A stretch of 34,419 bases of DNA from Clostridiales bacterium (GCA_015069525.1 SVIK01000001.1:1-34419), one strand, 5' to 3'. Counted from the stretch's first letter, positions 19,120 to 34,419 are shown. Program-made: numbers and translations. Notes: generated by a model not told the origin, from the letters alone.

Positions 19120-19148
19120 TTGACAAATTAAAAAAAATATATTATAAT
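19120..19148 (+). promoter_or_regulatory. Consensus sigma-A promoter of the GH127-like gene
   Basis: TTGACA (19120-19125), 17-nt spacer, TATAAT (19143-19148). Confidence 0.6.
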
Positions 19149-19200
19149 AAAGTTATTATGCAGTAAAAATTGCAAAAAAACGAAAAATGAGGAAAAAAAC

Positions 19201-21021
19201 ATGTGGAAAAACGACGTATTTGCTTGTGTTGACGGAAAGATGACTTTCGACGGGTACATAAAGGAATTGGAGAAATATCTTGTTGAAAATCACGTGACCA
19301 AACAGAACGTATGGGAACTGTTCGTGAAGCAATTTCGCGATAAAACGGATACTGACTGGCGTTGGCGTGGGGAATATTGGGGCAAAGCAATGCGTGGCGC
19401 CGCGATGCTTTATAAAGCAACGAAGGACCCTGCTATTTATGACGCAATGAAAGCTACGATAGAAGATTTGCTTTCCACGCAAGAGGAAAACGGTAGAATT
19501 TCTACCTATCCCGTATCGCTCGAATTTAACGGCTGGGATATGTGGGCGAGAAAATATATTATTTTAGGCAACCTGTATTTCTACGAGGTTTGCGAAGACG
19601 AAGCGTTTAAGGAAAAATTATTAAACGCGCTTGTAAAGCACGCCGATTATATCGTGGCGCACGTAGGCGAAGGGGAAGGCAAGAAACCCATTTTGAAAAC
19701 TTCGGACGCTTGGGGTACGATGAATTCTTGCTCCAATTTAGAGCCGTTTGTAAAACTTTACAAAATTACGGGCAAACCCGAGTATCTTGAATTTGCCGAA
19801 TATATCGTCAGCACGGGGCTTTGCGACGGGGCAAACTTGATTGACCTTGCTTTAAAAGGTATACCGCCTCATAAATATCCGCATCCCAAGGCATACGAGA
19901 TGATGAGCTGTTTCCAAGGCTTATTGGAATTGTATACCGTCACGCGTGACGCAAAGCAATTGGAAGCGGTTGTAAAATTTGCCGATTTGGTATACGATAA
20001 CGAAGTGACGATTATCGGGACGGCGGGTTATGAAGGGGAAATGTTCAGCCACGGCGCGCCTGGGCAAACGGAATATTCCGAGAAAGAGGTATTGGAAACG
20101 TGTGTGACGGTCGTTTGGATGAACCTTTGCTTCCGCTTGTTGGAAATCACGGGTGACGCAAAGTATGCCGATTGGTTGGAATGCGCTTCCCTCAACGCTA
20201 TGAACGGTAGCGTAAATAACAAAGACCAACTTTCTATTCGTTCGGCAAACTGGGACCCTCGCTACGTGGATGCAAGCTTGCCTATGGAAGAATGGCCGAT
20301 GTACACGGGCAAACGCCAAATTTTGCCTTTCGATAGTTATAGCCCGCTTGTAAATGCAAATAGAGGACAATTGATTGCCGGTTTCAATATCATGGAAGAC
20401 GAGCAAATTTACGGTTGTTGCGCATGTATCGGTGTGGCAGGGCTTGCGATGGAAGAACTGTTTGCCGTTATGAAAACGAAGAATGGATACGCAGTAAACC
20501 TTTACGAAGACACGATTGTGGAAACGAGCGATTGTCGTTTGTCGATTGTACGTGATAAAAAGACGTTTGCCGTGAAGATTGCAGTAGAGAGCGAAAAGGA
20601 ACAGACGTTGAAGTTGCGCGTTCCCACGTGGACGGAGGGTTATCAAGTCTTTGTAGACGGCAACGAAGTTGCGGTGGAAGAAAAGGACGGGTATTTCAAG
20701 CTTGCCGTACAAAACAACGTGGTGGAAATTGCGTTCAATGCGGTTGTGAAAATGCTGAAATATCACGATAAAATTGCCTTCAAGAAAGGACCTTACGTGT
20801 TGGCTCGCGACCAAAAATTAGGCGAGGATATCACTACGCCCGTTTCCCTCGCGGAAAAACTGACGATTAAAGCGTATAAGAACGAGCTTTTCGACTGTGA
20901 TTACGCTTATAAATTGCAAACGGCAGACGGAGAGATTACCCTTTGCGATTACGCACACGTTGGTAAGGAATACGATAGTGAGGATTGCAATATCAGCGTT
21001 TGGCTTGAAAAGAAAATGTAA
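19201..21021 (+). CDS. DUF1680 / GH127-like glycoside hydrolase (beta-L-arabinofuranosidase-like), cytoplasmic
   Basis: WRGEYWGKAMRGAAMLY resembles the DUF1680 N-terminal block. E299-T-C301 (LETCVTV, nt 20095-20103) and C406-C407 (YGCCACIG, nt 20416-20421) mirror the Glu/Cys3 zinc site and Cys nucleophile of GH127 HypBA1, as I recall it. No signal peptide. Confidence 0.65.
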   Translation: MWKNDVFACVDGKMTFDGYIKELEKYLVENHVTKQNVWELFVKQFRDKTDTDWRWRGEYWGKAMRGAAMLYKATKDPAIYDAMKATIEDLLSTQEENGRISTYPVSLEFNGWDMWARKYIILGNLYFYEVCEDEAFKEKLLNALVKHADYIVAHVGEGEGKKPILKTSDAWGTMNSCSNLEPFVKLYKITGKPEYLEFAEYIVSTGLCDGANLIDLALKGIPPHKYPHPKAYEMMSCFQGLLELYTVTRDAKQLEAVVKFADLVYDNEVTIIGTAGYEGEMFSHGAPGQTEYSEKEVLETCVTVVWMNLCFRLLEITGDAKYADWLECASLNAMNGSVNNKDQLSIRSANWDPRYVDASLPMEEWPMYTGKRQILPFDSYSPLVNANRGQLIAGFNIMEDEQIYGCCACIGVAGLAMEELFAVMKTKNGYAVNLYEDTIVETSDCRLSIVRDKKTFAVKIAVESEKEQTLKLRVPTWTEGYQVFVDGNEVAVEEKDGYFKLAVQNNVVEIAFNAVVKMLKYHDKIAFKKGPYVLARDQKLGEDITTPVSLAEKLTIKAYKNELFDCDYAYKLQTADGEITLCDYAHVGKEYDSEDCNISVWLEKKM

Positions 21022-21028
21022 ATATATG

Positions 21029-21063
21029 ACAGCCGTATCGAATACAGCGATACGGCTGTTTTA
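21029..21063 (+). terminator. Rho-independent terminator
   Basis: Stem ACAGCCGTATCG (21029-21040) / CGATACGGCTGT (21048-21059), then TTTTAA. Confidence 0.8.
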
Positions 21064-21172: not shown

Positions 21173-23206
21173 ATGGACTTTATTTGGCTCAAAGAAGAAG
21201 AAAATAATTCGTACGCGCAGTTCAAGGCGAATTTCGATTATAAAAAGGGAAACGTAAAATTATCCGTTTCCGCCGATTATAAGTATGAGGCATACGTTAA
21301 CGGCGTTTTGGTGAGTAATTGCCAATATGCCGATTTACCTACCTATAAGAGCGTAGATAGCGTAGATATTACCGCTTTTCTCCAAAAAGGAAATAACGAA
21401 TTGACGATAACGGCATTCCATATGGGAGAAGATTTCTCTTCTTGTCGTCCGCAGACGGCAGGGGTTGCTTTTAGCGTAGAAAACGAGGGAAAAACGCTTG
21501 TCAAATCGGGCGAAGATACGCTGTGTCGTAAGGCAAAAGGCTACCGCCCTGGCGGTATTATCACGGCGCAACTTGGCTACGGTTGGAATTACGATTGTAC
21601 GGACGAGGGGGGAGCTTGGGAAAAGGCACGTTTAACCAAGGCTGAAAATACGCTTGTGCCCCGTCCTATCCCCGCACTTGCGATTGGAGAACCGATGCCT
21701 GTCGTCGTTTGCGCACAAGGTATTTTTCAATACCGTGAAGGAAAAACGGCAGGGGAAAAGGCGCAAAACGCGTGGCTGTCCACTCTGCGTTTTGCGGGAA
21801 TGACGGGAAAAAATAAAATTACTTCCGCCGATTTGCATGTACCGGTGACGTTTAAGGCAAACGGTGGCGACGGCGTTTTCGTTATCGTCGATTTGCAAAA
21901 GGAAACGAGCGGTTATCCCGTGCTTTCCGTTACGGTAGATAAACCTTGTAAAGCAATCTTTGCTTGGGGCGAACATCTTGCCGACTTACGTATCCGTGCA
22001 GAGCGCGAAGGACGTAATTTTGCTTCGGAATACACGTTCAAGAAAGGGGAAAACGCTTTTGCGGGATATATTCACCGTTTAGGGTGCAGATACCTTTGTT
22101 TATTCGTGGAAAACGACGAGGTGACGATAAATACCTTGACGGTGCGTGAGGCTACGTATCCGTTTAAGATGCCGAAAAAGGATTTCGGGGATAGATTGCT
22201 CAACCGCATTTACGAGGTGGGGCGTAGAACGATGCAAATTTGTGCACACGAGCATTATGAGGATTGTCCTTGGCGGGAGCAAGCGCTTTACGGCATGGAC
22301 GCACGCAATCAAATGTTGTTTGGCTACGGTGCGTTTGAGGAATACACGTTGCCCCGTGCCGTGCTTCGTTTACAGGCGTATTCTACCCGAGAAGACGGTT
22401 TGCTTTCCCTTTGTGCACCTTCTCGCGCAAAAATTTGTATTCCTTCGTTCAGCTTGTATTGGGCGATTGCCGTATATGAAAACGCACAGGTGGATTACGA
22501 CGAGGCTTTCGTGAAAGAAATGCTTCCCTACGCTGATAAGATTCTAGAGAATTTTAAGCGTCGTACGACGGAAGCCGGCGTGACCTGCTTTAAGGAAAAA
22601 GACTATTGGAATTTCTATGAGTGGAGCGAGGGCTTGGACGGCGGTACTATCTTCCGTGAATACGAAATAGAGGAAACGACGGACTGTATTTTAACGACGC
22701 TTTCGTTTATGGCTTCGCGTGGCGTTGCAAAGCTGTATAAGCGTGTGGGAGATACGGCGCAAGCGGAAAAGTGGTTGCATTACGCGGAAAAAGTGCAAGG
22801 CACGATAGAGGCGTTTTACGATAAAGAAAAAGGCTTATACGCTTCGTTTATTAAGCAGGGAGAAAAGTACGGTTGGCATGCGCATACCCAAGCGATTGTA
22901 TTGCTTGCCGATATCCCCGAGGAGAGAAAGGATTCTCTTTGCGAGGTCTTAAAAAATCCCGATGGGAAAGTAGTGGATATGACGTTTGCCGCGTTGCAAT
23001 TTAAATACGACGCTATCGTTGCGTGCCAAGGGGATATAAATTGGTGCGTGGACGATATTTGTAAACTGTTTGGAGATATGCTTTTCCAAGGCGCAACCAG
23101 CTATTGGGAAACGGCTTTGGGTGAGGCGGATTTTGACGATGCGGGCAGTCTTTGTCACGGCTGGTCTGCCGTTGGTTGCTACGTTTTCGATAAATACCTG
23201 AAATAA
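21173..23206 (+). CDS. GH78-like alpha-L-rhamnosidase-related protein, cytoplasmic
   Basis: N-terminal rhamnosidase-N-like block (YKYEAYVNGVLVS...DITAFLQKGNNELTI). Six-hairpin domain block HYEDCPWREQALYGMDARNQ. C-terminal SLCHGWSAVG. No signal peptide. Confidence 0.6.
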   Translation: MDFIWLKEEENNSYAQFKANFDYKKGNVKLSVSADYKYEAYVNGVLVSNCQYADLPTYKSVDSVDITAFLQKGNNELTITAFHMGEDFSSCRPQTAGVAFSVENEGKTLVKSGEDTLCRKAKGYRPGGIITAQLGYGWNYDCTDEGGAWEKARLTKAENTLVPRPIPALAIGEPMPVVVCAQGIFQYREGKTAGEKAQNAWLSTLRFAGMTGKNKITSADLHVPVTFKANGGDGVFVIVDLQKETSGYPVLSVTVDKPCKAIFAWGEHLADLRIRAEREGRNFASEYTFKKGENAFAGYIHRLGCRYLCLFVENDEVTINTLTVREATYPFKMPKKDFGDRLLNRIYEVGRRTMQICAHEHYEDCPWREQALYGMDARNQMLFGYGAFEEYTLPRAVLRLQAYSTREDGLLSLCAPSRAKICIPSFSLYWAIAVYENAQVDYDEAFVKEMLPYADKILENFKRRTTEAGVTCFKEKDYWNFYEWSEGLDGGTIFREYEIEETTDCILTTLSFMASRGVAKLYKRVGDTAQAEKWLHYAEKVQGTIEAFYDKEKGLYASFIKQGEKYGWHAHTQAIVLLADIPEERKDSLCEVLKNPDGKVVDMTFAALQFKYDAIVACQGDINWCVDDICKLFGDMLFQGATSYWETALGEADFDDAGSLCHGWSAVGCYVFDKYLK

Positions 23207-23230
23207 AATTGTATAAAAATCAAATATTAC

Positions 23231-23276
23231 AACAAGGAGTTTGGCTTTTTTACCAAACTCCTTGTTTATTTTTTGT
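23231..23276 (+). terminator. Rho-independent terminator
   Basis: 14-bp stem AACAAGGAGTTTGG (23231-23244) / CCAAACTCCTTGTT (23253-23266), then TATTTTTTG. Confidence 0.85.
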
Positions 23277-23372: not shown

Positions 23373-24329
23373 ATGGAGAAAAAAACGAGAAACGAGAAGA
23401 AAATTTATGCATTAAAAACGAAAAGCATGCCTCGTGTCAGCTTTGCGGTAATTAGCCGTGAAACGCTTGAAAAGGTTGATAAAATAGAGGATAACGGTTT
23501 TGTTTGTGTTCGATACGTAGATACGGGAAAAATGGACGTCGCTTTTCAATACGGACCAAAATTTACCGTTAAAGCTGGCGAATATTGCATTTACCCGCGC
23601 AAAAGCAAATCGCAAACGGTAATACATAAAAATACGACGACGACGCTTTTTTCTTTCTTTATTGACGAGGGAGAGGATAAACTTATCAATTCTTCCGAGG
23701 TGTTGTTTGAAAAGTCGGATAACTATAAATACGTGGACATTGAAAGCTTATTCATTTTGCAAACGGGAAAAATCACGCCGTCTGACCGAGCTTATTCCGA
23801 ATTGAAGCAGTTGGTTCATCGATACGACGCAATTGGAGAATATACGAACGCGAACGTGTCTATGCACGCTTGGAATTTCTTGTTGTGGCTCGCCAACGCA
23901 CAAATAAACGATATAAAAGGGAATAAAGAGGAGAAAAAGAATAGCGTAGAAAAATATTGCGATAGAATTGACGAATATATCGAAAAGAATTATATGATGC
24001 CGATTACGATGACGACGATTGCCGATTTGCTTGTTTTGCATGAAAATTACATTAGTCGTATTTACAAGCAAACGCGCGGATTGACGGTGGTTGAACATTT
24101 GCGAAACGTACGTATCGAAAAGGCAAAAGAATTGTTGTTGCAAAACAAATATACGATTGCGCAAGTGGCAAAGGCAGTCGGCTTTTTAAACGTGAAATAT
24201 TTTATCGCCGTATTCAAAAAAGTGGAAAGTGTTTCCCCTGGGAAATATTATCGCAATCTTTTCGAACGTCGGTTGTATTCTTACGACAAACCTGAATATC
24301 TCGATTATTCAAACGACGAGATTTTGTAA
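23373..24329 (+). CDS. AraC-family transcriptional regulator
   Basis: C-terminal double HTH (ITMTTIADLLVLHENYISRIYKQ...IAQVAKAVGFLNVKYFIAVFKK...SPGKYYRN). N-terminal sensor-like domain. The start is uncertain because the RBS is weak. Confidence 0.85.
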   Translation: MEKKTRNEKKIYALKTKSMPRVSFAVISRETLEKVDKIEDNGFVCVRYVDTGKMDVAFQYGPKFTVKAGEYCIYPRKSKSQTVIHKNTTTTLFSFFIDEGEDKLINSSEVLFEKSDNYKYVDIESLFILQTGKITPSDRAYSELKQLVHRYDAIGEYTNANVSMHAWNFLLWLANAQINDIKGNKEEKKNSVEKYCDRIDEYIEKNYMMPITMTTIADLLVLHENYISRIYKQTRGLTVVEHLRNVRIEKAKELLLQNKYTIAQVAKAVGFLNVKYFIAVFKKVESVSPGKYYRNLFERRLYSYDKPEYLDYSNDEIL

Positions 24330-24513: not shown

Positions 24514-26001
24514 ATGGCAAGAAAGAAACGTATTATTTCCTGTGCATTAACGGGCGTACTTGCACTTTCGTCGGTAGGGGCGCTCGCTGGGTGCGACGCT
24601 TTGACGGGTGAAAACGTTATTTGGATAGCGTTTGCTGAAACTGGGTATGGCCGTGGATTCTTGGAACAATGGTGCAAAGATTTCCAAGAAAAATATCCCG
24701 AAGAGGAATACGTCTTTGAATTGGAAGGCGAGCCTGGCATGACGGGGGAAATTCAAACGCGTTTGACGACGGATAACGAAATTCCCGACTTGTTTTTCAG
24801 TTTGGATACGAACTGGCAAGAATGGGCGGCTCGTGGATATTTGTATCCGTTGGACGATATTTACCGCAAATCGAAAGCAGACGGAGATAAATCGGTTTGG
24901 GAATTCATGAACAAAGACTTGCGTGATTATGGTGTTGTAAATGGACACTACTACGCAATTCCTTGGACGGACGGTGCAAACGGTTTTATCTATAATAAGA
25001 CGTTGTTTGACGAAAACGGCTGGGAAGTTCCTGAAACGGTAGAGGAATTGTACGAGCTTTGCGATAAAATCAACAATCTTCCTTGCAATAAAGATGCCGA
25101 CAAAGAAAATAACATTGCCGTTTTCGCTTGGTCGGGTAAATATGCAAGCTATTGGGATTTCGTAGTGGAAAACTGGTGGGCGCAATACGAAGGTGCGGAC
25201 GAATTTAGAGATTTCTTTAACTTTGGAGCCCCGAAGAATGAAGACGGCACGTTCAAGTTTGAAAGCAATAATGCATCGCCTTCTGATTACGGTTCTCCTG
25301 AGGTGTATTTGCAAGAAGGTCGCGTAAAGGCGTTGGAAGTTTATAGAAACTTGGTTGTAAATGAAAACTCAACCTTCCCGAAAAACTCCATTTCTGGTGC
25401 GGTCGGTGCGGAATACACGGTTGCTCAGCTTGCGTTCATCAACGGAAAAGCGGCGATGATGCCTAACGGTGCATGGCTCGAACAAGAAATGGCGGAGGTT
25501 ATGCCTGACGATTTCGAAATGCGTTTGATGCGTACGCCGTATTTGGAAGAAGCGAAGAAAGATAAAGACGGTAATTATATTCCCATCAACGCGTCTTCCG
25601 CGGGGGACTTCTTCTGTATTCCCAAAAACGCTCCCAACTTGGAAGCGGCTTTGAAGTTCATGGAATACATCAACTCTCGCGAGGCGTGCGAAACGTTCAC
25701 CCGCGTGACCGGTGGTATTCGTCCTTTCCAATATATTGACGATTTGGATTTGGACAGCATGAATTTAAGTGAATTCTCTAAATCGTGCATCGAAGTATAT
25801 AGAGAAAGCACGACGGTATATCACTATTCCAGCAACCCGATTCAATGGGTGAGCACGTTTGGCAAATGGCCTGACCTTGGTAGCCCTTACGTAGGTATGA
25901 TTAGTGACCCTACGGAAAACACGCCGGCTGCGGTATGCTCGAAGAGTTGTGATTACGTGTATAGAGAATGGTGGAACTCCTACAATTTAGTTAACCAATA
26001 A
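24514..26001 (+). CDS. Carbohydrate ABC transporter substrate-binding lipoprotein
   Basis: RBS AAGGAG. Signal peptide with lipobox LAGC. About 495-aa family-1-type solute-binding protein, followed by permease genes. Confidence 0.85.
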   Translation: MARKKRIISCALTGVLALSSVGALAGCDALTGENVIWIAFAETGYGRGFLEQWCKDFQEKYPEEEYVFELEGEPGMTGEIQTRLTTDNEIPDLFFSLDTNWQEWAARGYLYPLDDIYRKSKADGDKSVWEFMNKDLRDYGVVNGHYYAIPWTDGANGFIYNKTLFDENGWEVPETVEELYELCDKINNLPCNKDADKENNIAVFAWSGKYASYWDFVVENWWAQYEGADEFRDFFNFGAPKNEDGTFKFESNNASPSDYGSPEVYLQEGRVKALEVYRNLVVNENSTFPKNSISGAVGAEYTVAQLAFINGKAAMMPNGAWLEQEMAEVMPDDFEMRLMRTPYLEEAKKDKDGNYIPINASSAGDFFCIPKNAPNLEAALKFMEYINSREACETFTRVTGGIRPFQYIDDLDLDSMNLSEFSKSCIEVYRESTTVYHYSSNPIQWVSTFGKWPDLGSPYVGMISDPTENTPAAVCSKSCDYVYREWWNSYNLVNQ

Positions 26002-26016: not shown

Positions 26017-27291
26017 ATGAAAGAAAGCGTAAAAAATAAACGCCAAACCCGCGTACATATAGGGGGGTGGGTCTCTCCCAAACCTGCCCAAGAAGTGGGT
26101 GGCGAAGATTTTTGCACGGTTGCGCAATATAAATTAATGAAAGAAAGCGGTATCCGTACGGCGTACGCTATTTACGAACGTAGTGCTGTGGACGTCGACG
26201 GGAAAAACGCAAACGAACGTGCGTTGGCTTGTGCCGAAAAAGCGGGAATGCAGTTTTACGTATGGGACACAAAAGTTCGCGACCTTATGCTTGAAGGTGA
26301 TGAAACCGCTGTCAAGGAGTATTTAAAGAAATACACCAAATTTAAATCGTTCAAAGGCGTTTTGATGAAGGACGAGCCAACGAAAGAGGATTTGGTATGG
26401 TGCAAAAAAATCGTAGACGTGTGGGATAAGTATTTGCCCGACAAAGATTGTTTTATGAATCTTTTTCCCGAGCACGTGCTAAAAGAAGATTGTAAACTTG
26501 CTCAAGACGATACGTTTGAAGACGATTACCTTAATGCGTTTATGGCAATGAACGTTAAACGACTTTCGTACGATTTATATCCTTTGATGTACGACGATGA
26601 CGGTAAGCCTACGATTCAAAAACATTATCTTCATAATTTAGAGCTTTGCGCAGAGGTAGCGAAGAAGAAGGGAGTACCCCTTTGGACGTTTATTCAATCC
26701 ATGAGTTTTACTCGTTGGCATCGTCGTCCGGATGAATCGGCTTTGCGTTGGCAAATTATGAGTGGTTTTGCATACGGGGTAAAGGGGATACAGCATTTCT
26801 GCTATTGGCCCCCGACGGAAGACAAATTATTGACGGTGAACGATGCGTTCTTAAACCCGCAAGGCGAACCGACGGATATCTATTTCACGGCGCAAAAGAT
26901 ACATAAAGAGATTGAAACGTTTGAAAAAGAATTCGTGACCTATGATTATGAAGGCGTTATGCCGATTTTAGGAGATGGGGCGAAGGAAAACGCTTTTTAT
27001 GAAACGTTGAACTGTCCTTTGAAGAGCCATGCGCTTATCCGTTCCGTTTCTGCAACGCAAGATACGCTTTTAGGTGTTTTAAAAAACGAAAAAGGCAAGA
27101 ATGCCTTCTTCCTTGCGAACTTTGCCGACCCTATTTTACAGCTTTCTAGCGAAGTAAAGCTTTGCTTAAACGGGGTGGAAAAAATTAAAGTTTCGCAAAA
27201 CGGAAAAACCCGCCGTATAAAAGCAAAAGACGGAATGTTTACTTTCGTTCTTGGCGCAGGCGACGGCGCGTTTATCCAAATCATCAAGTAA
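26017..27291 (+). CDS. Uncharacterised TIM-barrel glycosidase-like protein without signal peptide (paralog 3 of 4)
   Basis: Start set at ATG 26017 (AAGAGAG upstream); the listed ORF begins at TTG 26011. Family blocks: LMKDEPT (DEP at nt 26371-26379), NLFP, LSYDLYPL, PLWTFIQS, AYGVKGIQHFCYWP, C-terminal LGAGDGAFIQIIK. Confidence 0.8.
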   Translation: MKESVKNKRQTRVHIGGWVSPKPAQEVGGEDFCTVAQYKLMKESGIRTAYAIYERSAVDVDGKNANERALACAEKAGMQFYVWDTKVRDLMLEGDETAVKEYLKKYTKFKSFKGVLMKDEPTKEDLVWCKKIVDVWDKYLPDKDCFMNLFPEHVLKEDCKLAQDDTFEDDYLNAFMAMNVKRLSYDLYPLMYDDDGKPTIQKHYLHNLELCAEVAKKKGVPLWTFIQSMSFTRWHRRPDESALRWQIMSGFAYGVKGIQHFCYWPPTEDKLLTVNDAFLNPQGEPTDIYFTAQKIHKEIETFEKEFVTYDYEGVMPILGDGAKENAFYETLNCPLKSHALIRSVSATQDTLLGVLKNEKGKNAFFLANFADPILQLSSEVKLCLNGVEKIKVSQNGKTRRIKAKDGMFTFVLGAGDGAFIQIIK

Positions 27292-27371
27292 ATTTATACG
27301 GCAAAGCCGTTTGTCCTTGGAGAGGGACGAAAAAAACTACTACGAATATTACGTTATAGGAGTTTTTGTCT

Positions 27372-28400
27372 ATGGAAAACAAGAAAATGCAGTCCGACAA
27401 ACCGGTTGGTGGCAATATTGAAGTAGATTACAAGGACTTGAAACCCTTTTTGTACGAAGAGGATAAGGTAGATTATCAACCAGTTATCCCCAAAAAGAAG
27501 AGGATGGCAACGTCGAAGAAAATTTTCATTATCACGATGTTGGCATATCCCATTTTGCACTTCCTTATCTTTTGGGTATACATTAACTTTAATACGATTC
27601 TTAAATCGTTCCAAGGTTTTTCGTATAAAACTGGCGACGAAGTTTTTGTAGGCATGAAGAATTACATAAACTTCTTTAAAGCATTTAGCTCGGAATCGGG
27701 GCAATTAAAACACGCAGTAGTCAATTCATTGCTATTCTTCGTGTTTAACAACTTTGTATTATTGCCGGTATCCATGATATTTGCTTACCTGCTTTTCAAG
27801 AAAGTGTTTATGGAAAAAGTTTTCCGTATCATATATTTCTTGCCGAATATTATCTCGGTTGTTGTATTGACGATGGTATTCAAGTTCATGTTCGATAATG
27901 AATTTGGCCCGCTGTTCAGTATAATGGAAAAGATAGGGTTGAAAATGCCTGAGAACGGCTTCTTTGGGACGGAAGGCACGGCGATGATTATGATATTCGT
28001 CTACTGTTTGTGGGCAGGTATCGGCTATAACGTACTTTTGCTTTCTGGTACGATAGCAAGAATCCCGACGGAAGTATTGGAAGCTGGTAAAATTGACGGC
28101 ATCGGGATGGTAAGAGAGTTCGTTCAAATCGTAGTTCCTCTTATTTTCTCGACGGTATCCACGTTGTTCGTGACGGGCTCCATGGTCATGTTCACACTCT
28201 TCTTGCAACCAATGTTGTTGACGAAGGGTGGACCGGATAACTCCACGTATACGCTGGCATATTACATTGTAGAACAAGTTAACAACAACCGTTTGTACGA
28301 CGCAGCGGCGGCAGGTATTATTTGTAGCGTTGTAGGTATTCCTATTATCCAAGGTATCAAGTCGATAATGGAAAAACTTACGCCCGACGTAGAATTCTAA
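27372..28400 (+). CDS. Carbohydrate ABC transporter permease (MalF/LplB-like)
   Basis: ATG 27372 lies 9 nt after AGGAG (27358-27362); the listed ORF starts at TTG 27366. Multi-TM protein with EAA loop LEAGKIDGIGMVREFVQIVVPLI. Confidence 0.85.
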   Translation: MENKKMQSDKPVGGNIEVDYKDLKPFLYEEDKVDYQPVIPKKKRMATSKKIFIITMLAYPILHFLIFWVYINFNTILKSFQGFSYKTGDEVFVGMKNYINFFKAFSSESGQLKHAVVNSLLFFVFNNFVLLPVSMIFAYLLFKKVFMEKVFRIIYFLPNIISVVVLTMVFKFMFDNEFGPLFSIMEKIGLKMPENGFFGTEGTAMIMIFVYCLWAGIGYNVLLLSGTIARIPTEVLEAGKIDGIGMVREFVQIVVPLIFSTVSTLFVTGSMVMFTLFLQPMLLTKGGPDNSTYTLAYYIVEQVNNNRLYDAAAAGIICSVVGIPIIQGIKSIMEKLTPDVEF

Positions 28401-28470: not shown

Positions 28471-31400
28471 ATGAGAAAAAGCTTTATGAAAAAGTTATTT
28501 GCCACGTTGGCGGTTGCAACTTTTGCAACCGTCGGCGCAGGCGTTGCGTTTACAAATAACACGAAAGAAGCCTCAGCGGATACGGGCGTAATTTCTACGG
28601 ATTTTTCGTCTGCGACTTTGCCTACTGGCTTATCGATTACGAATTCAAGCGCTATTGTGGCTGAAAATGGGGAGCTTAAATTTAATACAGGCATTATATC
28701 AGGCGCGTCTATTGTGACGACGCAACAATACACAAACTTTGTGTTGGAATACGATTTAAACTTTACCTCTGGTGAATGGGCTCCCATTGTTTACTTTGGT
28801 AATGGCACAAGCACTGTGCATACTGAAAGTGCGTTTATTTATGTAAATGCATGGGGTGCGGTTGCAAATAGATATAACAATGCGGACAATACGATGTTTG
28901 CTGCGTTTCTTCCTGGTTCAATTAATCCGTATGCCTCTGGGGCTAAAACGCACGTGAAAGTGACGGTTCAAGCAGGGGCGGTCACGCTTACGTTGAAAGA
29001 CCTTGCGACTAATGCGGTTTATGAAAATCAAGTAGCGACTGGAATTAACAAGACAGGTGTCGTAGGTGTTCCTTCTTCGGGAAATGCGGTGTTTTCGATT
29101 GATAACCTTTCCATAACCAATTTAGATACGGCTCAAACAGTTCCTACGCCTCCTGCAACGACGGTGAAAGGTACTTCGTTGAATAATTGTGATTATTTAG
29201 GCGGTTGGTATGGTACCAATGGCACGTGCGCGCTTGATACAGAAATAAAATCGCAAGGTACAGGGTCCTTAAAGCATACGTTATCGGCAGGCAATTATTT
29301 TATCGTAATGGTAAGAGATTATTCTAATGGTGACGCAGAGTTAACGTTAGAACAGCTTTTGGCATACGACGGATTGTATTTTGAAGTATATAACCCTGGT
29401 TCTGCGGTAGATTTAAAATTCTTTAACTCCTCTACTGTTGCAACGACGTTGCAAACGGGGTGGAATCAAGTGACGATTTCTAAGGCGAATATTCAATCGG
29501 CAATTGACGCTAATGCAGAGCAATTTGTTGGAGGCGAATTCCGCTTTACTATCGGTGGCGACGCGACAATCTATCTTGACAACGTAATGGGTATCACGCC
29601 AGCTTCGTCAGGCGGGGATAGTGGTTCTACTGATAATTGGACGTTGGACACCTCTGTTTGGTCGATAACGCATACGAATGCTATTACGCAAACGACGGGA
29701 GCGCTCTCGTTTGTGACGGGCGCTGATGCTGTTACGTACGATGGCGCGGCGATTGTGACAAACTCGTCTTATACCAATTTCCAATTGGAATTTGACATGT
29801 CGGCTACCGCGTCTGGTGGTTGGCTTCCCATTGCATTTTTCGGCGCAACGGAAAGCAACATGTATTATCATAACAACTTCTTGCACATTAACGATTGGGG
29901 CGCTCTTAAGCAACTCAACATTTCAGCTGATACTGCAGACATTGTTGACTTGAACACGAGTAACGTTAGCCCGTATACCAACCGTATTCCTAATGGCGAG
30001 CAAATTCATGTAAAGCTTGTTGTAAATAACGGAAACGTCGTATTGACGCTCACGAAAGGGACGGGGACATTCTCAAAAACGTTGTATACAGGAATTAATG
30101 TGACGGGTAAAGTAGGTATTCCTGCTACGATTAATTCCAATTTCAATATTTCTAACGTGACGATTACCGATTTGGGTGAATCCGGTGGCGAGGGCGGCGG
30201 AACGACGCCGGAAACGCCCGTAGGGGAAGGCTCGACGGCGTATACGAAATTTGACGGCGCAGTTGATTCTAATTGGGCGATAACGGGCGGCACGCGTGTA
30301 AGCGTTTCCAACGGGCAACTTGTATATGCAAACAATACGGCAACGGGTGACGGCATTTATACGACGGGTAAATACACCAACTTTATTTTGGAGTATGATA
30401 TCACGCCTACCCTTATCAATCAACCTGTGGAGGACCCTCAGACTGGTTGGATTCCCGTAATTATGTTCAGCGTAGGCGATAATGCCAATATTGGTGGCGC
30501 TAACAATTTCGTCTATATGAACCAATACGGTGCAATCGTAGGGCTTAATCCTAGTGGACAAAATATCTTTACACCAGCATTAGTGGGTTCACCACATTCT
30601 GCAATTGTTAATACAACGACGCACGTTAGGGTAGAAGCGCAAGACGGTACCGTGACGGCATATTTTAAGAGAGGTAGTCAAGAGACTTCGTTTGTAATTG
30701 GCAATGGCCTTAATACGACGGGTAGAGTTGGTATTCCCGTATCGGCGGAAACTGGCTTGATTATCGATAACCTTGTAATCGTCAATTCTGACGAATATGC
30801 AGATTATCAAGTAAATAAAATCACGTTGGCAAACGATGGCCCGCAAGCAAACGCAAACGAAACGCTTACAGGCAACCTGTTGGATGAAATTAAGAGAAAA
30901 GCACAAGCAGACGGTATTGATATTACCAATAAGTCGTTTGTGTTCCGTTCTAAGACAGACGGATTCTTCCTTGATTCCAAAACGGGTGAGTGGGAATATA
31001 CGGTTGGACCTTACAACGGTTTGAAGGAACTTGAATACGTTATTACCGTTAATGACCTTGTGCTTGACGGATGGGTATATCCGCTCGGCAATAGAGGTAT
31101 GTATACGATTGAAGGAAATATTGCGGTCACCATCATTGGTGGCATGGACGACCCTAACGAAGGTGGTGAAGGTGGTGGCGCTGGCGACACGAGCGAACTT
31201 CCTGTTATTGTTGGGGATAACGTTGTAGAACACGTTCAAGGTAAAGTGCAAGACGTATCTTTCATTATCGATACGAAATCTTATAAAATTACCCGTATAA
31301 CGTATAACACGGAAAACGTTAAGGTTGCTGCTTATACTTTGGAAGAAGTAGAGGAAGGCATTAAGTTGACGTTCAAAGGCGACTTCGTGGCGCTTTTGGA

Positions 31401-32676
31401 AAAAATAGGCGATAACGAATTTAAAATTGAAACGATTAAAGGTTTTGTGGATGCTATTATTCGGGTAAAAGTTTTGGAAACGCCCGAAATCATCGATGGA
31501 AATTCCGCGGAAATGTGGAAGAATTATGAAACGGACGCTGTGTTTAATCTTAACACGTTTGAATTGCCGATTCTTTCCATCCTCCGTACAGGTGCGTCCT
31601 CGGCGCTCAATAGCGATGCATACACGTATGCAGACGGCGTTTTAACGATTAAAAAGGAATATCTTGCAACGTTGGATGCAAGTGACGACGCTTACCGTTT
31701 CAGTATTTATACGGACGGTGGTAGCGTATCCGTAAACGTGACGATTAAATTTGCCGAAGAACCTTACGTAGACCCTGAATCAGCAGAGTTCACGCTTGGT
31801 AGCGAAAACGACGTTGAATTCGAGTTGGATACGATGGGGGCGCCTATTGTGCAAATCGTTCGTGATAACGAAGAAAAGGCGCTTGGTGATAACGCTTATG
31901 CTTTCGATGCAGACGCAATGTCGTTGACGTTTAAAAAGGAATATCTTGCGGCACTTGGCGCTGGTGAATACGAATTCACGATTACGACGCCTGGTGGGGA
32001 TGCAGTTGTGACGATTACGGTACTTCCTGGCGACGGACCTACGTGTACCGACAACAAAAAGAACGCAACGTTTGGTGAAAATGCGAATGTTTCGTTTACC
32101 GTTAACACCAACGGCCAAGCGATTGTGGCTATTCAAAGAACGGGTGCTACGTATGGGCTTGGCGAGGATGCATATACCTATGAAAACGGCACGTTGACGA
32201 TTGTTGGCGACTACGTTGCATTGCTTCCTTTGGGAGAAAACGAATTCACGTTGGAAACGGCAAACGGCTCTATTAAATTCTACATTAACGTAGTAGAAGA
32301 AACGCCCGAAAATCCTGACAATCCTGACAATCCTGATAATCCCGAAGACCCCGAAGACGGTGAATACGAAGGCGGGGAATACGAGGAAGATAATAAGGAT
32401 AACCCCTTCGAGGAAGACATTACGAATCCCGATGAAGGAGAAGAACCTATTGACCCCGAAGAACCTGATGACGGAGGAAATAGCGGTAGCGGTTCGTATG
32501 AAGACGAATTCACCGGTTCTGTTAAACCTAGTGAAGATTCCTACAATAAATATCTTGAAGGACTCGAAAACGGTGGTCAAGTATCCGGCGGTTGCAACGG
32601 TTCCCTTTCTATGGTAGCAGGTTTGCCCGTAGTGGGAATTATCGCTTGGTTGATTCGGAAAAAGAAAGAGGACTAA
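28471..32676 (+). CDS. 1401-aa modular cell-surface protein: signal peptide, three ConA/DUF1080-like lectin modules, a CBM-like module, four X2-like Ig modules, an acidic stalk and a C-terminal membrane anchor
   Basis: RBS AAGGAG. Signal peptide aa 1-36 (..KEASA|DTG). Lectin-like modules at aa 37-218, 389-568 and 588-772 share YTNF.LE(Y/F)D, GW.P(I/V), F.(Y/H)(V/I/M)N..GA, H(V)(K/R)V, TG.VG(V/I)P and DNL/SNV.I. CBM-like module at aa 231-375. X2-like repeats at aa 911-1002, 1005-1094, 1100-1185 and 1192-1275. Asp/Glu/Pro-rich stalk at aa 1276-1350. C-terminus GGCNGSLSMVAGLPVVGIIAWLIRKKKED. Confidence 0.85.
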   Translation: MRKSFMKKLFATLAVATFATVGAGVAFTNNTKEASADTGVISTDFSSATLPTGLSITNSSAIVAENGELKFNTGIISGASIVTTQQYTNFVLEYDLNFTSGEWAPIVYFGNGTSTVHTESAFIYVNAWGAVANRYNNADNTMFAAFLPGSINPYASGAKTHVKVTVQAGAVTLTLKDLATNAVYENQVATGINKTGVVGVPSSGNAVFSIDNLSITNLDTAQTVPTPPATTVKGTSLNNCDYLGGWYGTNGTCALDTEIKSQGTGSLKHTLSAGNYFIVMVRDYSNGDAELTLEQLLAYDGLYFEVYNPGSAVDLKFFNSSTVATTLQTGWNQVTISKANIQSAIDANAEQFVGGEFRFTIGGDATIYLDNVMGITPASSGGDSGSTDNWTLDTSVWSITHTNAITQTTGALSFVTGADAVTYDGAAIVTNSSYTNFQLEFDMSATASGGWLPIAFFGATESNMYYHNNFLHINDWGALKQLNISADTADIVDLNTSNVSPYTNRIPNGEQIHVKLVVNNGNVVLTLTKGTGTFSKTLYTGINVTGKVGIPATINSNFNISNVTITDLGESGGEGGGTTPETPVGEGSTAYTKFDGAVDSNWAITGGTRVSVSNGQLVYANNTATGDGIYTTGKYTNFILEYDITPTLINQPVEDPQTGWIPVIMFSVGDNANIGGANNFVYMNQYGAIVGLNPSGQNIFTPALVGSPHSAIVNTTTHVRVEAQDGTVTAYFKRGSQETSFVIGNGLNTTGRVGIPVSAETGLIIDNLVIVNSDEYADYQVNKITLANDGPQANANETLTGNLLDEIKRKAQADGIDITNKSFVFRSKTDGFFLDSKTGEWEYTVGPYNGLKELEYVITVNDLVLDGWVYPLGNRGMYTIEGNIAVTIIGGMDDPNEGGEGGGAGDTSELPVIVGDNVVEHVQGKVQDVSFIIDTKSYKITRITYNTENVKVAAYTLEEVEEGIKLTFKGDFVALLEKIGDNEFKIETIKGFVDAIIRVKVLETPEIIDGNSAEMWKNYETDAVFNLNTFELPILSILRTGASSALNSDAYTYADGVLTIKKEYLATLDASDDAYRFSIYTDGGSVSVNVTIKFAEEPYVDPESAEFTLGSENDVEFELDTMGAPIVQIVRDNEEKALGDNAYAFDADAMSLTFKKEYLAALGAGEYEFTITTPGGDAVVTITVLPGDGPTCTDNKKNATFGENANVSFTVNTNGQAIVAIQRTGATYGLGEDAYTYENGTLTIVGDYVALLPLGENEFTLETANGSIKFYINVVEETPENPDNPDNPDNPEDPEDGEYEGGEYEEDNKDNPFEEDITNPDEGEEPIDPEEPDDGGNSGSGSYEDEFTGSVKPSEDSYNKYLEGLENGGQVSGGCNGSLSMVAGLPVVGIIAWLIRKKKED
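31201..32295 (+). repeat. Four tandem ~85-92-aa X2-like (Ig-fold) protein repeats inside the surface-protein gene
   Basis: nt 31201-31476, 31483-31752, 31768-32025, 32044-32295. Shared pattern: DV.F.L.T.G..I..I.R.G...L..DAYTY..G.LTI.K.YLA.L..GE.EF.I.T..G.....I.V. The divergence is at protein level only; these are not DNA-identical repeats. Confidence 0.7.
32311..32355 (+). repeat. Five in-frame 9-bp tandem units (NPD NPD NPD NPE DPE)
   Basis: AATCCTGAC, AATCCTGAC, AATCCTGAT, AATCCCGAA, GACCCCGAA, followed by a 15-bp duplication GGTGAATACGAAGGC / GGGGAATACGAGGAA (32359-32388). Confidence 0.85.
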
Positions 32677-32740
32677 TTAAACTCTCTACATTGCCGAAGA
32701 AATAGGCGATGATGAATTAAGATAAAAGGAGCAAAGCATT

Positions 32741-33586
32741 ATGAATAAGTCAAAAACGGAAAAAATTGTGCTTTGGATAACGTTCGTTATCTTTGCATTA
32801 TATGCTATCAGCTTGTTGTATCCCGTTTTTTGGTTGATAACAAACTCATTAAAGCAAACTAAGGAATTCGGTGCGGACCCGTTCGGATTCCCTAAGAGTT
32901 TCTATATGAAGAACTATGTGGACGCCTTTTCCCTTACGGTTGGCAGAACGAAGATACTCGGTATGTTTGTAAACAGCGTTATTCTCGTTGTTGGTTGTAC
33001 GCTTGTTAGCGTCTTCGTTCCTGCAATCACGGGCTACGTTGTTGCTAAGTTTGAATTCCCTGGGCGTAAGCTTTTGTACGGCGTTGCAATTTCTTCCATG
33101 TTGATTCCCGCCGTTGGTACGTTGACGGCAACCTATCAATTGATGGTAGACTTGCGTCTTTATAACAGCTACATAGGTATTATCATTATGTCAAGTGGCG
33201 GTTTCGGCTTCAACTTCGTTATGGTGTACGGTTTCTTTAAGAGCATTTCCAAAACGTATGCAGAAGCGGCGATGTTGGACGGTGCGGGGGAATACAAAAT
33301 CTTCTTTAAGGTTATGTTGCCTCAGGTCAAGCCTTCGTTGATTGCAATTGGTATTATTGCCGCAATCAACTATTGGAACGACTATTTCACGCCGTATATG
33401 TACTTGCGTCAACATCCTACGATTGCCGTTGGTTTGCAAAAGATTGTAGACAAAGTACAAGCGAACAACACGTGGCCTCAATTGTTCGCAATCATGTTGA
33501 TTTCAATTTTACCTCCCGTGGCGATTTTCATTGCGTTCCAAAAGACGATTATGGAAAACACCGTTGCTGGTGGTTTGAAAGGCTAA
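32741..33586 (+). CDS. Carbohydrate ABC transporter permease (MalG/LplC-like)
   Basis: RBS AAGGAG. Six TM segments. EAA loop AEAAMLDGAGEYKIFFKVMLPQVKPSL. Confidence 0.88.
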   Translation: MNKSKTEKIVLWITFVIFALYAISLLYPVFWLITNSLKQTKEFGADPFGFPKSFYMKNYVDAFSLTVGRTKILGMFVNSVILVVGCTLVSVFVPAITGYVVAKFEFPGRKLLYGVAISSMLIPAVGTLTATYQLMVDLRLYNSYIGIIIMSSGGFGFNFVMVYGFFKSISKTYAEAAMLDGAGEYKIFFKVMLPQVKPSLIAIGIIAAINYWNDYFTPYMYLRQHPTIAVGLQKIVDKVQANNTWPQLFAIMLISILPPVAIFIAFQKTIMENTVAGGLKG

Positions 33587-33606
33587 TTTAGAAAAGGAGT
33601 GAATTT

Positions 33607-34419
33607 ATGAAAGAGCAAAAAAATTCGGCGTGGTACGCGCGTATTAACAAGAAAAAAATCGGCGCATTGCTTTTATCGGCATGCATGCTTGGCTCCTTCG
33701 TGGGTTGTTCTACCGGTTCTAATACGGAATCGCTTAACAGCACTTCCAACCCTTTCTATCAAGGAGCAGGGGAAACGAACGGCTCGTTAGGCGATTACGA
33801 AAATGGTAATCCCGTTGGCGGTTCTTCCTCCTCTGGCGGGAACGTGAGCGATTATGAAACGGAAGACGTGGTAAGCGGTACGACTACGGATAAGACGACG
33901 GAGGATTTTGAAACGGAAACGCCCAACATGGGGGACACCACGACTTCTACGGGCAAATGGGAAGACTACGTTGGCGACGAGGACGAAAGCGTATACTTGC
34001 AAACCAAGCTTAACGACGACCCGTATAGAACGCAAGGCGGTTATTCGTATTTCTACCACTATCAACACGGTCCTACGACGATGCCCATTTCGGCATGGTC
34101 GCCTCCGCCTCCCAATTTTGGTGACTTTACGACCAACCAAATCACGCTCGCTAACTATCAAAAGATGGCAGATGCAGGGTTTAATACGGCTTACGGTCTT
34201 TACGAAGTTTTAAGAGGTGTTGTTGACGTAGATAAACGGAACGTCACGAACGCATTGACGTATGCAGACCAAGTGGGTATGGTTTATTATGTAAAAGACA
34301 GCTCCGCTCTCGGTAATTTGTCGGATAACGGTTCTGTTGCTTTGGATAACTATTACAGTTGGTACATGAATCGAAAGGCATACGGCGGTACGTTGACGGA
34401 AGACGAACCTGGCATGGAG
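33607..34419 (+). CDS. Lipoprotein member of the uncharacterised TIM-barrel glycosidase-like family (paralog 4 of 4), 3' end cut by the window edge
   Basis: Not in the supplied ORF track because it has no stop. ATG 33607 lies 8 nt after AAGGAG (33593-33598) and the frame is open for 271 codons to 34419. Signal peptide with lipobox FVGC. About 110 aa of Ser/Thr/Gly/Glu/Asp-rich linker. Then family blocks MPISAWSPPPP, YQKMADAGFNTAYGLYE, ALTYADQVGMVYYVKD, LTEDEPG (DEP at 34402-34410). Confidence 0.8.
   Translation, partial: MKEQKNSAWYARINKKKIGALLLSACMLGSFVGCSTGSNTESLNSTSNPFYQGAGETNGSLGDYENGNPVGGSSSSGGNVSDYETEDVVSGTTTDKTTEDFETETPNMGDTTTSTGKWEDYVGDEDESVYLQTKLNDDPYRTQGGYSYFYHYQHGPTTMPISAWSPPPPNFGDFTTNQITLANYQKMADAGFNTAYGLYEVLRGVVDVDKRNVTNALTYADQVGMVYYVKDSSALGNLSDNGSVALDNYYSWYMNRKAYGGTLTEDEPGME

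Follow-up and report, generated by a model that had tools for sequence, protein, structure and literature searches.

A probable Gram-positive polysaccharide utilization locus with a conserved transport cassette and non-adjacent permease genes

A definition of Gram-positive polysaccharide utilization loci (gpPULs) is available (PMC13543919; Sheridan et al. 2016, PMC5320581), with a glycan-degrading enzyme, a transport system and a transcriptional regulator as the three criteria of Sheridan 2016. The gpPULs of Roseburia, Eubacterium rectale and similar Bacillota combine a co-located regulator, an ABC importer, glycoside hydrolases, proteins for capture or cleavage at the surface and finishing steps in the cytoplasm (PMC5320581). 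The MsmX/MsmK-powered CUT1 importers of B. subtilis and S. pneumoniae, such as AraNPQ, GanSPQ and YesOPQ, consist of a family-1 binding lipoprotein and MalF-type and MalG-type permeases with EAA loops, the latter encoded by adjacent genes, and have no ATPase gene in their operons (PMC7658222). A similar logic is seen in the Sus-like PULs of Bacteroidota and the SusCD 'utilisome', in which the genes for surface glycan binders and lipoprotein enzymes lie beside those of the transporter, and breakdown is finished once the products have been imported.

The locus described here contains a glycan-degrading enzyme, a transport system and a transcriptional regulator, and is organized along the same general lines as the characterized gpPULs. 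It differs from them, and from the MsmX/MsmK-powered importers, in that its permease genes are non-adjacent. Genes for an anchored ConA-like protein and for lipoprotein enzymes of an uncharacterized family are interleaved with them, in a conserved layout that crosses class boundaries. The binding lipoprotein and EAA-loop permeases match those of the MsmX/MsmK-powered systems, and a shared ATPase would likewise be used. The likeness to Bacteroidota PULs is one of analogy only, as the locus belongs to an organism with no outer membrane, uses an ABC importer and lacks a SusC/SusD pair; a search of all locus genes for the Pfam families of SusC (TonB-dependent transporter) and SusD recovered none.

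Gene content and layout of the locus

The stretch of DNA analyzed, hereafter the window, comprises 34,419 nucleotides from a Clostridiales bacterium (GCA_015069525.1 SVIK01000001.1:1-34419), a gut member of the Clostridia in the genus Ca. Scatosoma. The features of the locus are collected in Table 1.

Table 1. Coordinates of the locus and its features, numbered from the first letter of the window
Feature	Coordinates	Strand	Basis or remarks
Whole locus, nine genes	19120-34419	all +	ORF listing; Pfam/NCBIfam scans
Promoter-like TTGACA-17-TATAAT, 5' of GH127-like gene	19120..19148	+	12/12 consensus match; predicted from consensus alone
GH127-like six-hairpin glycosidase; accessory, predicted cytoplasmic	19201..21021	+	PF07944 E 1e-32; PF20736; no signal peptide
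Likely terminator after GH127-like gene	21028..21060	+	13-bp hairpin, then TTTT
GH78-like alpha-L-rhamnosidase homologue; accessory, predicted cytoplasmic	21173..23206	+	PF17389 E 9e-12; no signal peptide
Terminator-like hairpin after GH78-like gene	23231..23266	+	14-15 bp stem, then T-run TTATTTTTTG
AraC-family regulator	23373..24329	+	PF12833 (HTH_18); PF00165
Family-1 solute-binding lipoprotein	24514..26001	+	Lipobox LAGC; SBP_bac_8 and SBP_bac_1 above Pfam cut-offs
FAM1, predicted cytoplasmic; GH42/clan GH-A-like TIM-barrel family	26011/26017..27291	+	424-426 aa; AF2 and Foldseek
Permease 1 (P1), MalF/UgpA type	27366..28400	+	PF00528; UgpA and MalF best NCBIfam matches; EAG...G...P coupling loop
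LEC, 1401 aa	28471..32676	+	PF06439, PF03442; signal peptide, three ConA/DUF1080-like modules, CBM_X2 repeats, acidic linker, C-terminal anchor
LEC ConA/DUF1080-like modules	28654-29118, 29683-30168, 30298-30783	+	
LEC C-terminal tripartite signal	32587..32673	+	GGCNGS, TM helix, RKKKED
Permease 2 (P2), MalG/UgpE type	32741..33586	+	PF00528; GlcU, UgpE and MalG best NCBIfam matches; EAA..G..LP loop
FAM2, lipoprotein	33607..34419+	+	Lipobox FVGC; ~130-aa low-complexity tether; runs past the 3' edge of the window

The position of the AraC regulator gene is kept in four loci of the survey below (L006, L010, L011 and L012). Downstream of the binding-protein gene the intergenic gaps are, in order, 9, 74, 70, 64 and 20 nt, with the FAM1 values of 9 and 74 becoming 15 and 80 nt when counted from the gene-caller ATG, and a search of the gaps from this gene onward for a hairpin followed by a T-run found none. 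Both observations fit a single transcript that would extend from the binding protein through FAM2 and beyond. The original prediction had placed the same nine genes in this order, which the ORF listing and domain scans bear out, and its gaps of 6-79 nt lie close to the 9-80 nt measured; its claim that convincing terminators are missing from the binding protein onward also stands.

The family-1 binding protein, together with one MalF-type and one MalG-type permease bearing EAA-type loops, places the transporter among the CUT1 importers. The best NCBIfam matches of the binding protein, CPR_0540 and NgcE, are both sub-threshold, and its best PDB match is 9h0n (E 7e-18). As both permeases carry EAA-type coupling loops, an ATPase partner is needed, and the original prediction had pointed out that no gene for it is visible in the locus. 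This holds for a Pfam search for MalK/MsmX-type ABC ATPases across 19120-34419; the sole ATPase of the window (11336-12856, minus strand) is part of a separate PotABCD-like operon, and the complete loci of relatives likewise have no ATPase before the next housekeeping genes. The absence is ordinary rather than unusual, since sugar importers of Bacillota are commonly powered by a shared MsmX/MsmK-type ATPase (PMC7658222). Given this precedent and the complete loci of the relatives, dependence on such an ATPase encoded elsewhere, as the original prediction had proposed, fits the cassette.

The GH127-like protein scores 114 bits against PF07944 (cut-off 24.9), and reaches E-values of only 1e-12 against PDB entries 6ex6 and 4qjy; its ETC and GE motifs align with those of 6ex6 and a GCC motif is present; by comparison with HypBA1, these motifs may supply catalytic or zinc-binding residues. 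The GH78-like protein scores 45.3 bits against PF17389 (cut-off 24.5) and matches Bacillus RhaB (2okx, E 1e-36) and 4xhc (E 2e-17), so that, judged by its sequence, it has a six-hairpin catalytic domain homologous to those of characterized rhamnosidases.

Conservation of the split permease pair

We used a profile-guided scan of species-representative genomes, in which orthologues of the transporter were located and the adjacency of their permease genes was scored. The cassette permease genes are non-adjacent in 36 loci and adjacent in 5, while the unrelated CUT1 permease pairs found within those same loci are adjacent in every case (5/5). The loci with split permeases span Ca. Scatosoma, other Clostridia, Bacilli, Acholeplasma, Izemoplasma, Haloplasma, Cohnella and Paenibacillus. 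Orthologues of P1 in these cassettes score 200-650 bits and CUT1 permeases unrelated to them 41-64 bits, and taken over P1, P2 and the binding protein the range is 200-900 bits to the window proteins versus 20-118 bits for unrelated systems. This gap in scores indicates that the transporter is orthologous across lineages.

P1 precedes P2 in 28 of the 36 loci, and between them lies + strand coding sequence, as a rule one ORF, which is broken into two in L015 and L072. The intervening protein in 28 loci carries ConA/DUF1080-like modules, with a signal peptide at its start and a membrane anchor at its C-terminus, and a custom module HMM detects the LEC module in every protein encoded between P1 and P2. 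These proteins range from 315 to 2871 aa and their domain content is also highly variable. The gene order of the window is shared with its Scatosoma relatives and with one MAG from the Clostridia, which has a FAM1 of 55% identity and three surface-protein genes between the permeases. Junction gaps are tight in all cassette loci. In loci with adjacent permeases, LEC is nevertheless encoded directly beside the transporter genes. The Paenibacillus cassettes lack LEC altogether and their permeases are nonetheless split, which implies that LEC is not an obligatory subunit of the transporter and that the split is not accounted for by LEC being there.

The recurrence of the arrangement in independent assemblies and many species indicates that it is neither due to chance nor an assembly artefact. 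The genes are linked, in the order on which the original prediction had centered, across very distant lineages; that prediction would have been refuted had its genes never occurred together in homologous loci, and the outcome was the opposite. The significance of the split permease pair is greater than could be seen from the window sequence alone. A limited literature search found no description of such an interleaved permease layout, and together with the uncharacterized enzyme family described below it is apparently a conserved, hitherto undescribed design, recurring in dozens of Gram-positive bacteria that are only distantly related.

The FAM family and the LEC modules

FAM1 has no match in Pfam, NCBIfam or the PDB sequences, and FAM2 likewise has none in Pfam or NCBIfam. 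FAM2 is 34% identical to it over 116 aa (E 2e-16), and by this similarity the two proteins, both of which had been listed as unknown-family, are paralogues; two more FAM paralogues are encoded upstream in the window. Neither point had been noticed in the original prediction. L001 extends FAM2 to 405 aa, and full-length relatives have 572-588 aa. The family comprises 6,535 cluster representatives, named "hypothetical protein" throughout except for a single "beta-galactosidase". Its members are mostly lipoproteins, and fusions with CBM_X2, Flg_new or SLH modules are frequent among them.

The AF2 model of FAM1 (pLDDT 89.9) is a (beta/alpha)8 barrel with a C-terminal beta-sandwich, and Foldseek matched it to PslG, GH164 and GH42 at ~10% identity and TM-scores around 0.5. 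This combination of folds, and a glutamate at strand 4, are common to FAM and GH42/clan GH-A enzymes (PslG/GH39, GH164, GH35). PF02449 (GH42) does not match the FAM proteins of the window, and a few distant members show partial matches to it (23-28 bits, model positions 233-375). In an alignment of ~300 diverse sequences D119, E120, N148, D186 and Y188 are strictly invariant and map to barrel strand ends, with E120, at the end of strand 4, occupying the acid/base position of clan GH-A in 302/302 sequences. The family departs from GH42 and clan GH-A in having an Asp-Glu instead of an Asn-Glu motif, and a strand-7 glutamine instead of the nucleophile glutamate (position 227: Gln in 260/300, Glu in 6/300); the placement of Q227 on strand 7 is based on the secondary structure of the model and, for the sequence downstream of the residue, on a profile alignment with GH42 5xb7. 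The modeled fold and invariant residues suggest that FAM proteins are enzymes, and the absence of the canonical clan GH-A nucleophile that they may not be conventional hydrolases.

The AF2 model of the LEC module is of moderate confidence (pLDDT 68.7) and resembles PL7 (a lyase, the best match), DUF1080 (3u1x), L-type lectins and CBM66. Given the PL7 match, the module may be an enzyme and not a lectin; in the scheme proposed below, LEC would bind glycans.

Proposed role of the cassette and alternative readings

The analysis shows which genes are present and in what order, that the FAM proteins are paralogues, which topologies and folds are predicted, that the arrangement is conserved and that the transporter parts are orthologous. 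We consider it probable that the region is a Gram-positive PUL whose core is an ancient, widespread CUT1 cassette without an ATPase of its own, with permease genes interleaved with those of tethered partners. At the cell surface, LEC and the tethered FAM2 would retain a glycan and cleave it, and the resulting oligosaccharides would be captured by the binding lipoprotein, imported by the P1 and P2 pair with energy from a shared MsmX/MsmK-type ATPase, and degraded to completion in the cytoplasm by FAM1 and the GH78-like and GH127-like enzymes. Expression would be controlled by the AraC regulator, with the genes from the binding protein through FAM2 and beyond co-transcribed. This mostly agrees with the interpretation in the original prediction, now extended by the conservation across lineages. 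Its scheme of finishing degradation inside the cell is supported for the Scatosoma clade, where FAM1 is predicted to be cytoplasmic; it does not extend to the cassette as a whole, as both flanking FAM members are extracellular lipoproteins in most lineages outside that clade.

The variable size and domains of the intervening gene, and the three genes found at this position in one relative, might suggest that an ordinary permease pair has been split by an insertion specific to one lineage, or by faulty assembly, with no functional link of the surface protein to the transporter. This is contradicted by the conservation across lineages and is extremely improbable, as a homologous anchored ConA-like protein occupies the same position in 28 loci from Clostridia, Bacilli and Mollicutes-like bacteria, in independent assemblies and with tight junctions everywhere. 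LEC, the lipoprotein enzymes and the permease dimer might form a supercomplex comparable to the SusCD 'utilisome', with interleaving retained because it promotes co-translational assembly at the membrane. In most lineages every cassette product is predicted to be attached to the membrane as a lipoprotein, a polytopic or a C-terminally anchored protein, the interleaving persists over deep divergence, and LEC genes adjoin the transporter even where the permeases are adjacent. Set against the Paenibacillus cassettes without LEC and the five loci with adjacent permeases, these features leave the supercomplex, and with it any direct contact of LEC or FAM with the permeases, a tentative possibility.

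The nature of the substrate and of FAM catalysis bears on two further readings. The suggestion of a plant glycan, made in the original prediction, is drawn solely from the GH127-like and GH78-like genes, which are accessory and variable. The target might instead be a HexNAc/rhamnose glycan of microbial or host origin, such as a rhamnose-rich cell-wall polysaccharide, on which FAM would act by substrate-assisted catalysis, with Asp119 orienting the 2-acetamido group and Glu120 as acid/base, so that no enzyme nucleophile is needed. The invariant strand-4 D-E pair, with glutamine replacing the nucleophile, resembles the catalytic pairs found in GH20, GH123 and GH84. The best, albeit sub-threshold, matches of the binding protein include the GlcNAc/chitobiose-binding NgcE and a Bifidobacterium binder of fucosylated lacto-N-biose blocks; among the accessory genes the GH78-like rhamnosidase homologue is the most frequent, occurring with the cassette in about 15 other loci; a ROK regulator accompanies the cassette in Paenibacillus; and both here and in L060 the locus sits inside the dcw cluster of cell-wall genes. 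Each of these hints is weak, the dcw location is found in just these two lineages, the best Foldseek matches are ordinary clan GH-A enzymes and not GH20 or GH123, and the invariant Asp186 is a possible alternative catalytic residue; we regard this reading as rather unlikely. Still less probable is that FAM is a catalytically dead, glycosidase-derived binding protein, with cleavage left to others such as the ConA-like (PL7/GH16-like) modules. The missing nucleophile and the PL7 lyase match of the LEC module would agree with it, but five invariant residues at strand ends are the signature of an active site rather than of decay, and a role limited to binding makes little sense for the cytoplasmic copies.

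Extending the preferred reading of a CUT1 cassette with tethered partners, one may speculate, with considerable doubt, on a 'surface utilisome' found throughout the phylum Bacillota, in which the permease genes stay interleaved with those of the tethered partners because all products form one membrane complex, LEC carries a new Cys-containing C-terminal sorting signal, and FAM is a new clan GH-A-derived glycoside hydrolase family that has lost the nucleophile Glu and would use a non-canonical mechanism, either substrate-assisted or Asp186-dependent.

In layout the LEC C-terminus resembles the tripartite MYXO-CTERM-type Cys signals, with a Gly-Cys signature followed by a TM helix and then a basic tail. 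It differs from them in that this tail is Lys-rich with a terminal acidic pair (RKKKED); four such signals have been described, none from Bacillota, and the source paper mentions neither Firmicutes nor Clostridia nor Bacillota. A tail with the G-C-[GNS]-[GS] motif is found in the window and in most versions from Clostridia and Bacilli, whereas the Mollicutes-like versions lack the motif and its Cys. Against the NCBIfam models of MYXO-CTERM-type signals the window tail scores 12 bits, below every threshold, and L070 is the only LEC tail to pass the MYXO-CTERM cut-off (21.3 vs 20). The window also encodes a CPBP-family protein (PF02517) at 2806-3642; such genes are common.

Gene content of the glycan locus

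Pfam and NCBIfam scans identified nine genes on the forward strand between 19120 and 34419 (see table), and the ORF listing bears out the order in which they had originally been predicted. From the gene for the solute-binding lipoprotein (SBP) onward the gaps measure 9-15, 74-80, 70, 64 and 20 nt, close to the predicted 6-79 nt. These gaps fold only to short hairpins lacking a T-run, in agreement with the predicted want of convincing terminators, and clear terminator-like hairpins are found after the GH127-like and GH78-like genes. An exact look-up of permease 2 (P2) returned only a 2.7-kb contig, and that of the 426-aa ORF of FAM1 matched no record, apparently a start-codon or record matter.

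Genes of the glycan locus, with the matches or scans that identify them
Gene product	Position	Strand	Basis
GH127-like protein	19201-21021	+	PF07944, E 1e-32
GH78-like protein	21173-23206	+	PF17389; Bacillus RhaB 2okx, E 1e-36
AraC regulator	23373-24329	+	Pfam/NCBIfam
SBP, family-1 solute-binding lipoprotein	24514-26001	+	Pfam/NCBIfam
FAM1, 424-426 aa	26011/26017-27291	+	without family match in Pfam/NCBIfam
P1, MalF/UgpA-type permease	27366-28400	+	Pfam/NCBIfam
LEC, 1401 aa, secreted	28471-32676	+	DUF1080/ConA-like and CBM_X2 domains, C-terminal TM helix
P2, MalG/UgpE-type permease	32741-33586	+	Pfam/NCBIfam
FAM2, lipoprotein	33607 onward, cut by window edge	+	paralogy to FAM1

Conservation of the split permease genes and absence of a transporter ATPase

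Paired ABC permease genes are usually adjacent. The set formed by SBP, FAM, P1, LEC, P2 and FAM is here termed the cassette. We scanned one genome per GTDB species with a profile of the FAM family, and annotated the resulting 78 loci by our own mechanical ORF calling and phmmer searches with the proteins of the window. Unrelated CUT1 permease pairs within these loci follow the adjacency rule noted in the original prediction (5 of 5 adjacent, none non-adjacent). The cross-genome comparison which that prediction had proposed shows the split order to be kept in relatives, with cassette-type pairs non-adjacent in 36 loci and adjacent in 5, these loci not being phylogenetically independent. The order P1, intervening gene, P2 is seen in 28 of the 36, which come from Ca. 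Scatosoma, other Clostridia, Ruminococcaceae, Pumilibacter muris, Bacilli/Enteromonas, Acholeplasma, Izemoplasma, Haloplasma and Cohnella. Two other Scatosoma-like genomes share the order of the window, with proteins of 1907 and 2871 aa between the permeases, and in the complete loci of relatives the cassette closes with FAM2 and another giant surface protein. The locus of the Clostridia MAG RGIG4059 (L002/L008; FAM1 55% identical) is an expanded version, with three surface-protein genes between P1 and P2 (1275 aa; 1311 aa with a Metallophos domain; 1771 aa with Flg_new_2 repeats) and genes for DUF4838, GH78-like and SASA-domain proteins downstream. At another homologous locus (L006, 457-3972) three serine-recombinase genes lie directly upstream of the GH78-like gene, in the place held by the GH127-like gene in the window, pointing to insertion of a mobile element, or replacement by one, at the locus edge. 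The remaining eight of the 36, all Paenibacillus loci (L022, L025, L027, L029, L030, L035, L037, L038), show a permuted order with the permeases still non-adjacent: a ROK regulator, then P2, a lipoprotein FAM, SBP, P1, a GDSL esterase and a secreted FAM of ~710 aa.

Several explanations for the split were considered. Misassembly or a lineage-specific insertion is rejected by the conservation of the arrangement across genomes. Two transporters with one permease each can also be set aside, as there is one MalF-type and one MalG-type permease with a single SBP, and both permeases co-vary as orthologues. The scores against P1, P2 and SBP of the window are 200-900 bits for cassette proteins versus 20-118 bits for unrelated systems, indicating that the transporter is orthologous across these lineages and that its subfamily acquired the split long ago. 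Co-assembly in a membrane complex would be an attractive reason for the interleaving of the permease genes; the Paenibacillus cassettes, split even though they have no LEC (the ConA-like anchored protein), make it less likely. The same cassettes lead us to reject LEC as an obligatory transporter subunit.

Both P1 and P2 carry EAA-type coupling loops, and hence require an ATPase. No ABC ATPase was found in the locus (19120-34419), nor in the complete loci of relatives, where housekeeping genes come next after the cassette. The sole ABC ATPase of the window (11336-12856, reverse strand) was rejected as the missing partner because it belongs to its own complete PotABCD-like operon. In this operon (8330-13429, reverse strand), which adjoins a gene for an HTH/cupin regulator and is unrelated to the cassette, the 506-aa ATPase carries a TOBE_2 domain and is encoded together with two permeases and a binding protein. 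The absence of an ATPase claimed in the original prediction thus holds for the locus, but it is ordinary rather than unusual, since orphan ATPases serve at least seven incomplete sugar importers in B. subtilis and six in S. pneumoniae (PMC7658222).

The FAM family and the anchored ConA-like proteins

FAM1 and FAM2 had been described as two proteins of unknown family. Neither matches a curated family, but they are not separate unknowns: aligning at 34% identity over 116 aa (E 2e-16), they are paralogues that belong to a single family, here termed FAM. Two more members are encoded upstream on the forward strand (1376-2680 and 5649-7142), one a 434-aa protein without a signal peptide and one a 497-aa lipoprotein; the window thus holds four paralogues within 34 kb. 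The two FAM copies that flank the transporter are lipoproteins in most lineages, in some cases joined by a third that is cytoplasmic; the one between SBP and P1 is cytoplasmic in the Scatosoma clade. Word-indexed searches recovered only 12 and 16 close relatives of FAM1 and FAM2, all without a Pfam domain and, where named at all, termed 'hypothetical protein'. The family profile retrieved 6,535 members at E <= 1e-3 and 2,163 at E <= 1e-30 from 1.84 billion cluster representatives (clustered at 50% identity); public names were 'hypothetical protein' and, once, 'beta-galactosidase'.

Neither FAM1 by itself nor the family profile found a significant sequence match in the PDB. In the AlphaFold model (pLDDT 89.9, pTM 0.91) a C-terminal beta-sandwich follows a (beta/alpha)8 barrel, and the best PDB structure matches of the model belong to clan GH-A, namely PslG/GH39, GH164, GH42, GH35 and GH30 (TM-score ~0.5, identity ~10%). 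Conservation, counted over ~300 distinct sequences, is near-absolute for D119 (300/302) and E120 (302/302) at the end of strand 4, N148 (295/300) on strand 5, and D186 (299/300) and Y188 (300/300) on strand 6. Position 227 on strand 7, which is placed at the nucleophile Glu site of clan GH-A by model strand order and partial profile alignment rather than structural superposition, is Gln in 260/300 and Glu in 6/300 sequences. This pattern, including the Gln at the nucleophile site, makes FAM look like an enzyme that is active, arose from the GH-A fold and has a non-canonical catalytic constellation. Pfam GH42 matches are weak, partial and confined to a few distant members, GH42 membership fails on the nucleophile (Gln, not Glu, at 227), and a literature search for 'GH42-like' yielded only unrelated marine enzymes.

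In the 28 loci forward-strand coding sequence occupies the gap between the permeases; as a rule it is one ORF, of 315-2871 aa and most often 810-950 aa, and in L015 and L072 it is split in two. The encoded proteins start with a signal peptide and end in a TM helix plus a short basic tail, the sole exception being the 315-aa Cohnella version. Self-BLAST of the 1401-aa LEC did not show internal repeats, and the ConA-like module of the distant intervening proteins escaped Pfam. An HMM iterated from the three ConA-like modules of the window's LEC detected the module in every intervening protein of the 28 loci, in a second anchored protein of ~400-430 aa after FAM2 in many loci, and in a protein of ~800 aa (544 aa in L063) after SBP in the five adjacent-permease loci. 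The module's model (moderate pLDDT of 68.7) matches jelly-roll structures, namely PL7 alginate lyases, the DUF1080 protein 3u1x, L-type lectins and CBM66. These matches make the predicted 'lectin-like' label reasonable, but the module may have a catalytic role.

Predicted function, surface anchoring and genomic setting

Glycan capture is much less understood in Gram-positive gut bacteria than in the Sus systems of Bacteroidota. Our functional proposals draw on sequence, predicted structure and synteny, and their best-supported reading is that the locus is a Gram-positive PUL (gpPUL). Glycan binding and cleavage would fall to tethered surface proteins (LEC and FAM2, joined in relatives by a further CBM_X2-rich one); SBP and the permease pair would import the products, driven by a shared MsmX/MsmK-type ATPase; and cytoplasmic FAM1 with the GH78-like and GH127-like enzymes would complete breakdown under AraC control. 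The commonest accessory gene, a homologue of the GH78-like rhamnosidase (~15 loci), points to a rhamnose-containing glycan as a candidate substrate. HexNAc-containing substrates are weakly hinted at by the invariant Asp-Glu pair of FAM, which lacks a nucleophile, by a sub-threshold similarity of SBP to NgcE, and by its similarity to a Bifidobacterium protein binding fucosylated lacto-N-biose blocks. In line with the predicted PUL-like character, the locus fits the gpPUL definition of Sheridan 2016, as cited in PMC13543919. Functionally it belongs with gpPULs that have a CUT1 importer; its relation to Sus systems is one of analogy, not membership.

The conserved interleaved architecture, the size and unusual active site of FAM, and the anchored ConA-like partner appear to be new, a limited literature search having turned up none of them. 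The locus is a local case of a cassette spanning gut Clostridia, soil Paenibacillus and marine Mollicutes-like bacteria, whose order departs from permease adjacency and sets tethered surface proteins within a transporter operon. As a possible Gram-positive equivalent of the utilisome it is specific enough to be tested, and cultured carriers are available in Pumilibacter muris, Cohnella soli, Paenibacillus baekrokdamisoli and Haloplasma contractile. Two large uncharacterised families also come to notice through it, the TIM-barrel FAM (~6,500 cluster representatives) with its unusual catalytic constellation and the anchored ConA-like proteins.

LEC ends in a signal (32587-32673) consisting of G-C-[GNS]-[GS], a TM helix and a Lys/Arg-rich tail (e.g. 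RKKKED). The same signal occurs on LEC, LEC2 and giant surface proteins of homologous loci (L007-L009, L015, L016, L019, L020, L023, L031, L032, L043-L046, L053-L060, L066-L075, L082-L087). It resembles the Cys-containing sorting signals of the MYXO-CTERM type; the paper defining such signals reported none from Bacillota, and NCBIfam sorting-signal matches to the C-terminal tails were sub-threshold except for one borderline MYXO-CTERM tail. The two upstream FAM paralogues flank a gene for a CPBP/Rce1-like intramembrane protease (PF02517; 2806-3642, forward strand). Processing of C-terminal sorting signals that contain Cys has been proposed for enzymes of the CPBP family; a tie between this gene and the signal is only a lead, CPBP genes being common.

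The glycan locus starts directly after mraZ-rsmH-ftsL-PBP (14985-19023), and in two relatives (L007, 18252-21734; L009, 15364-21710) it is followed by murE-mraY-murD-ftsW-murA, which together place it within the division/cell-wall (dcw) cluster. Another Scatosoma genome has the PBP gene (contig L065) and the locus on separate contigs. In a distant Clostridia MAG (L060, 3-2965) the cassette also lies directly after rsmH and a PBP gene.
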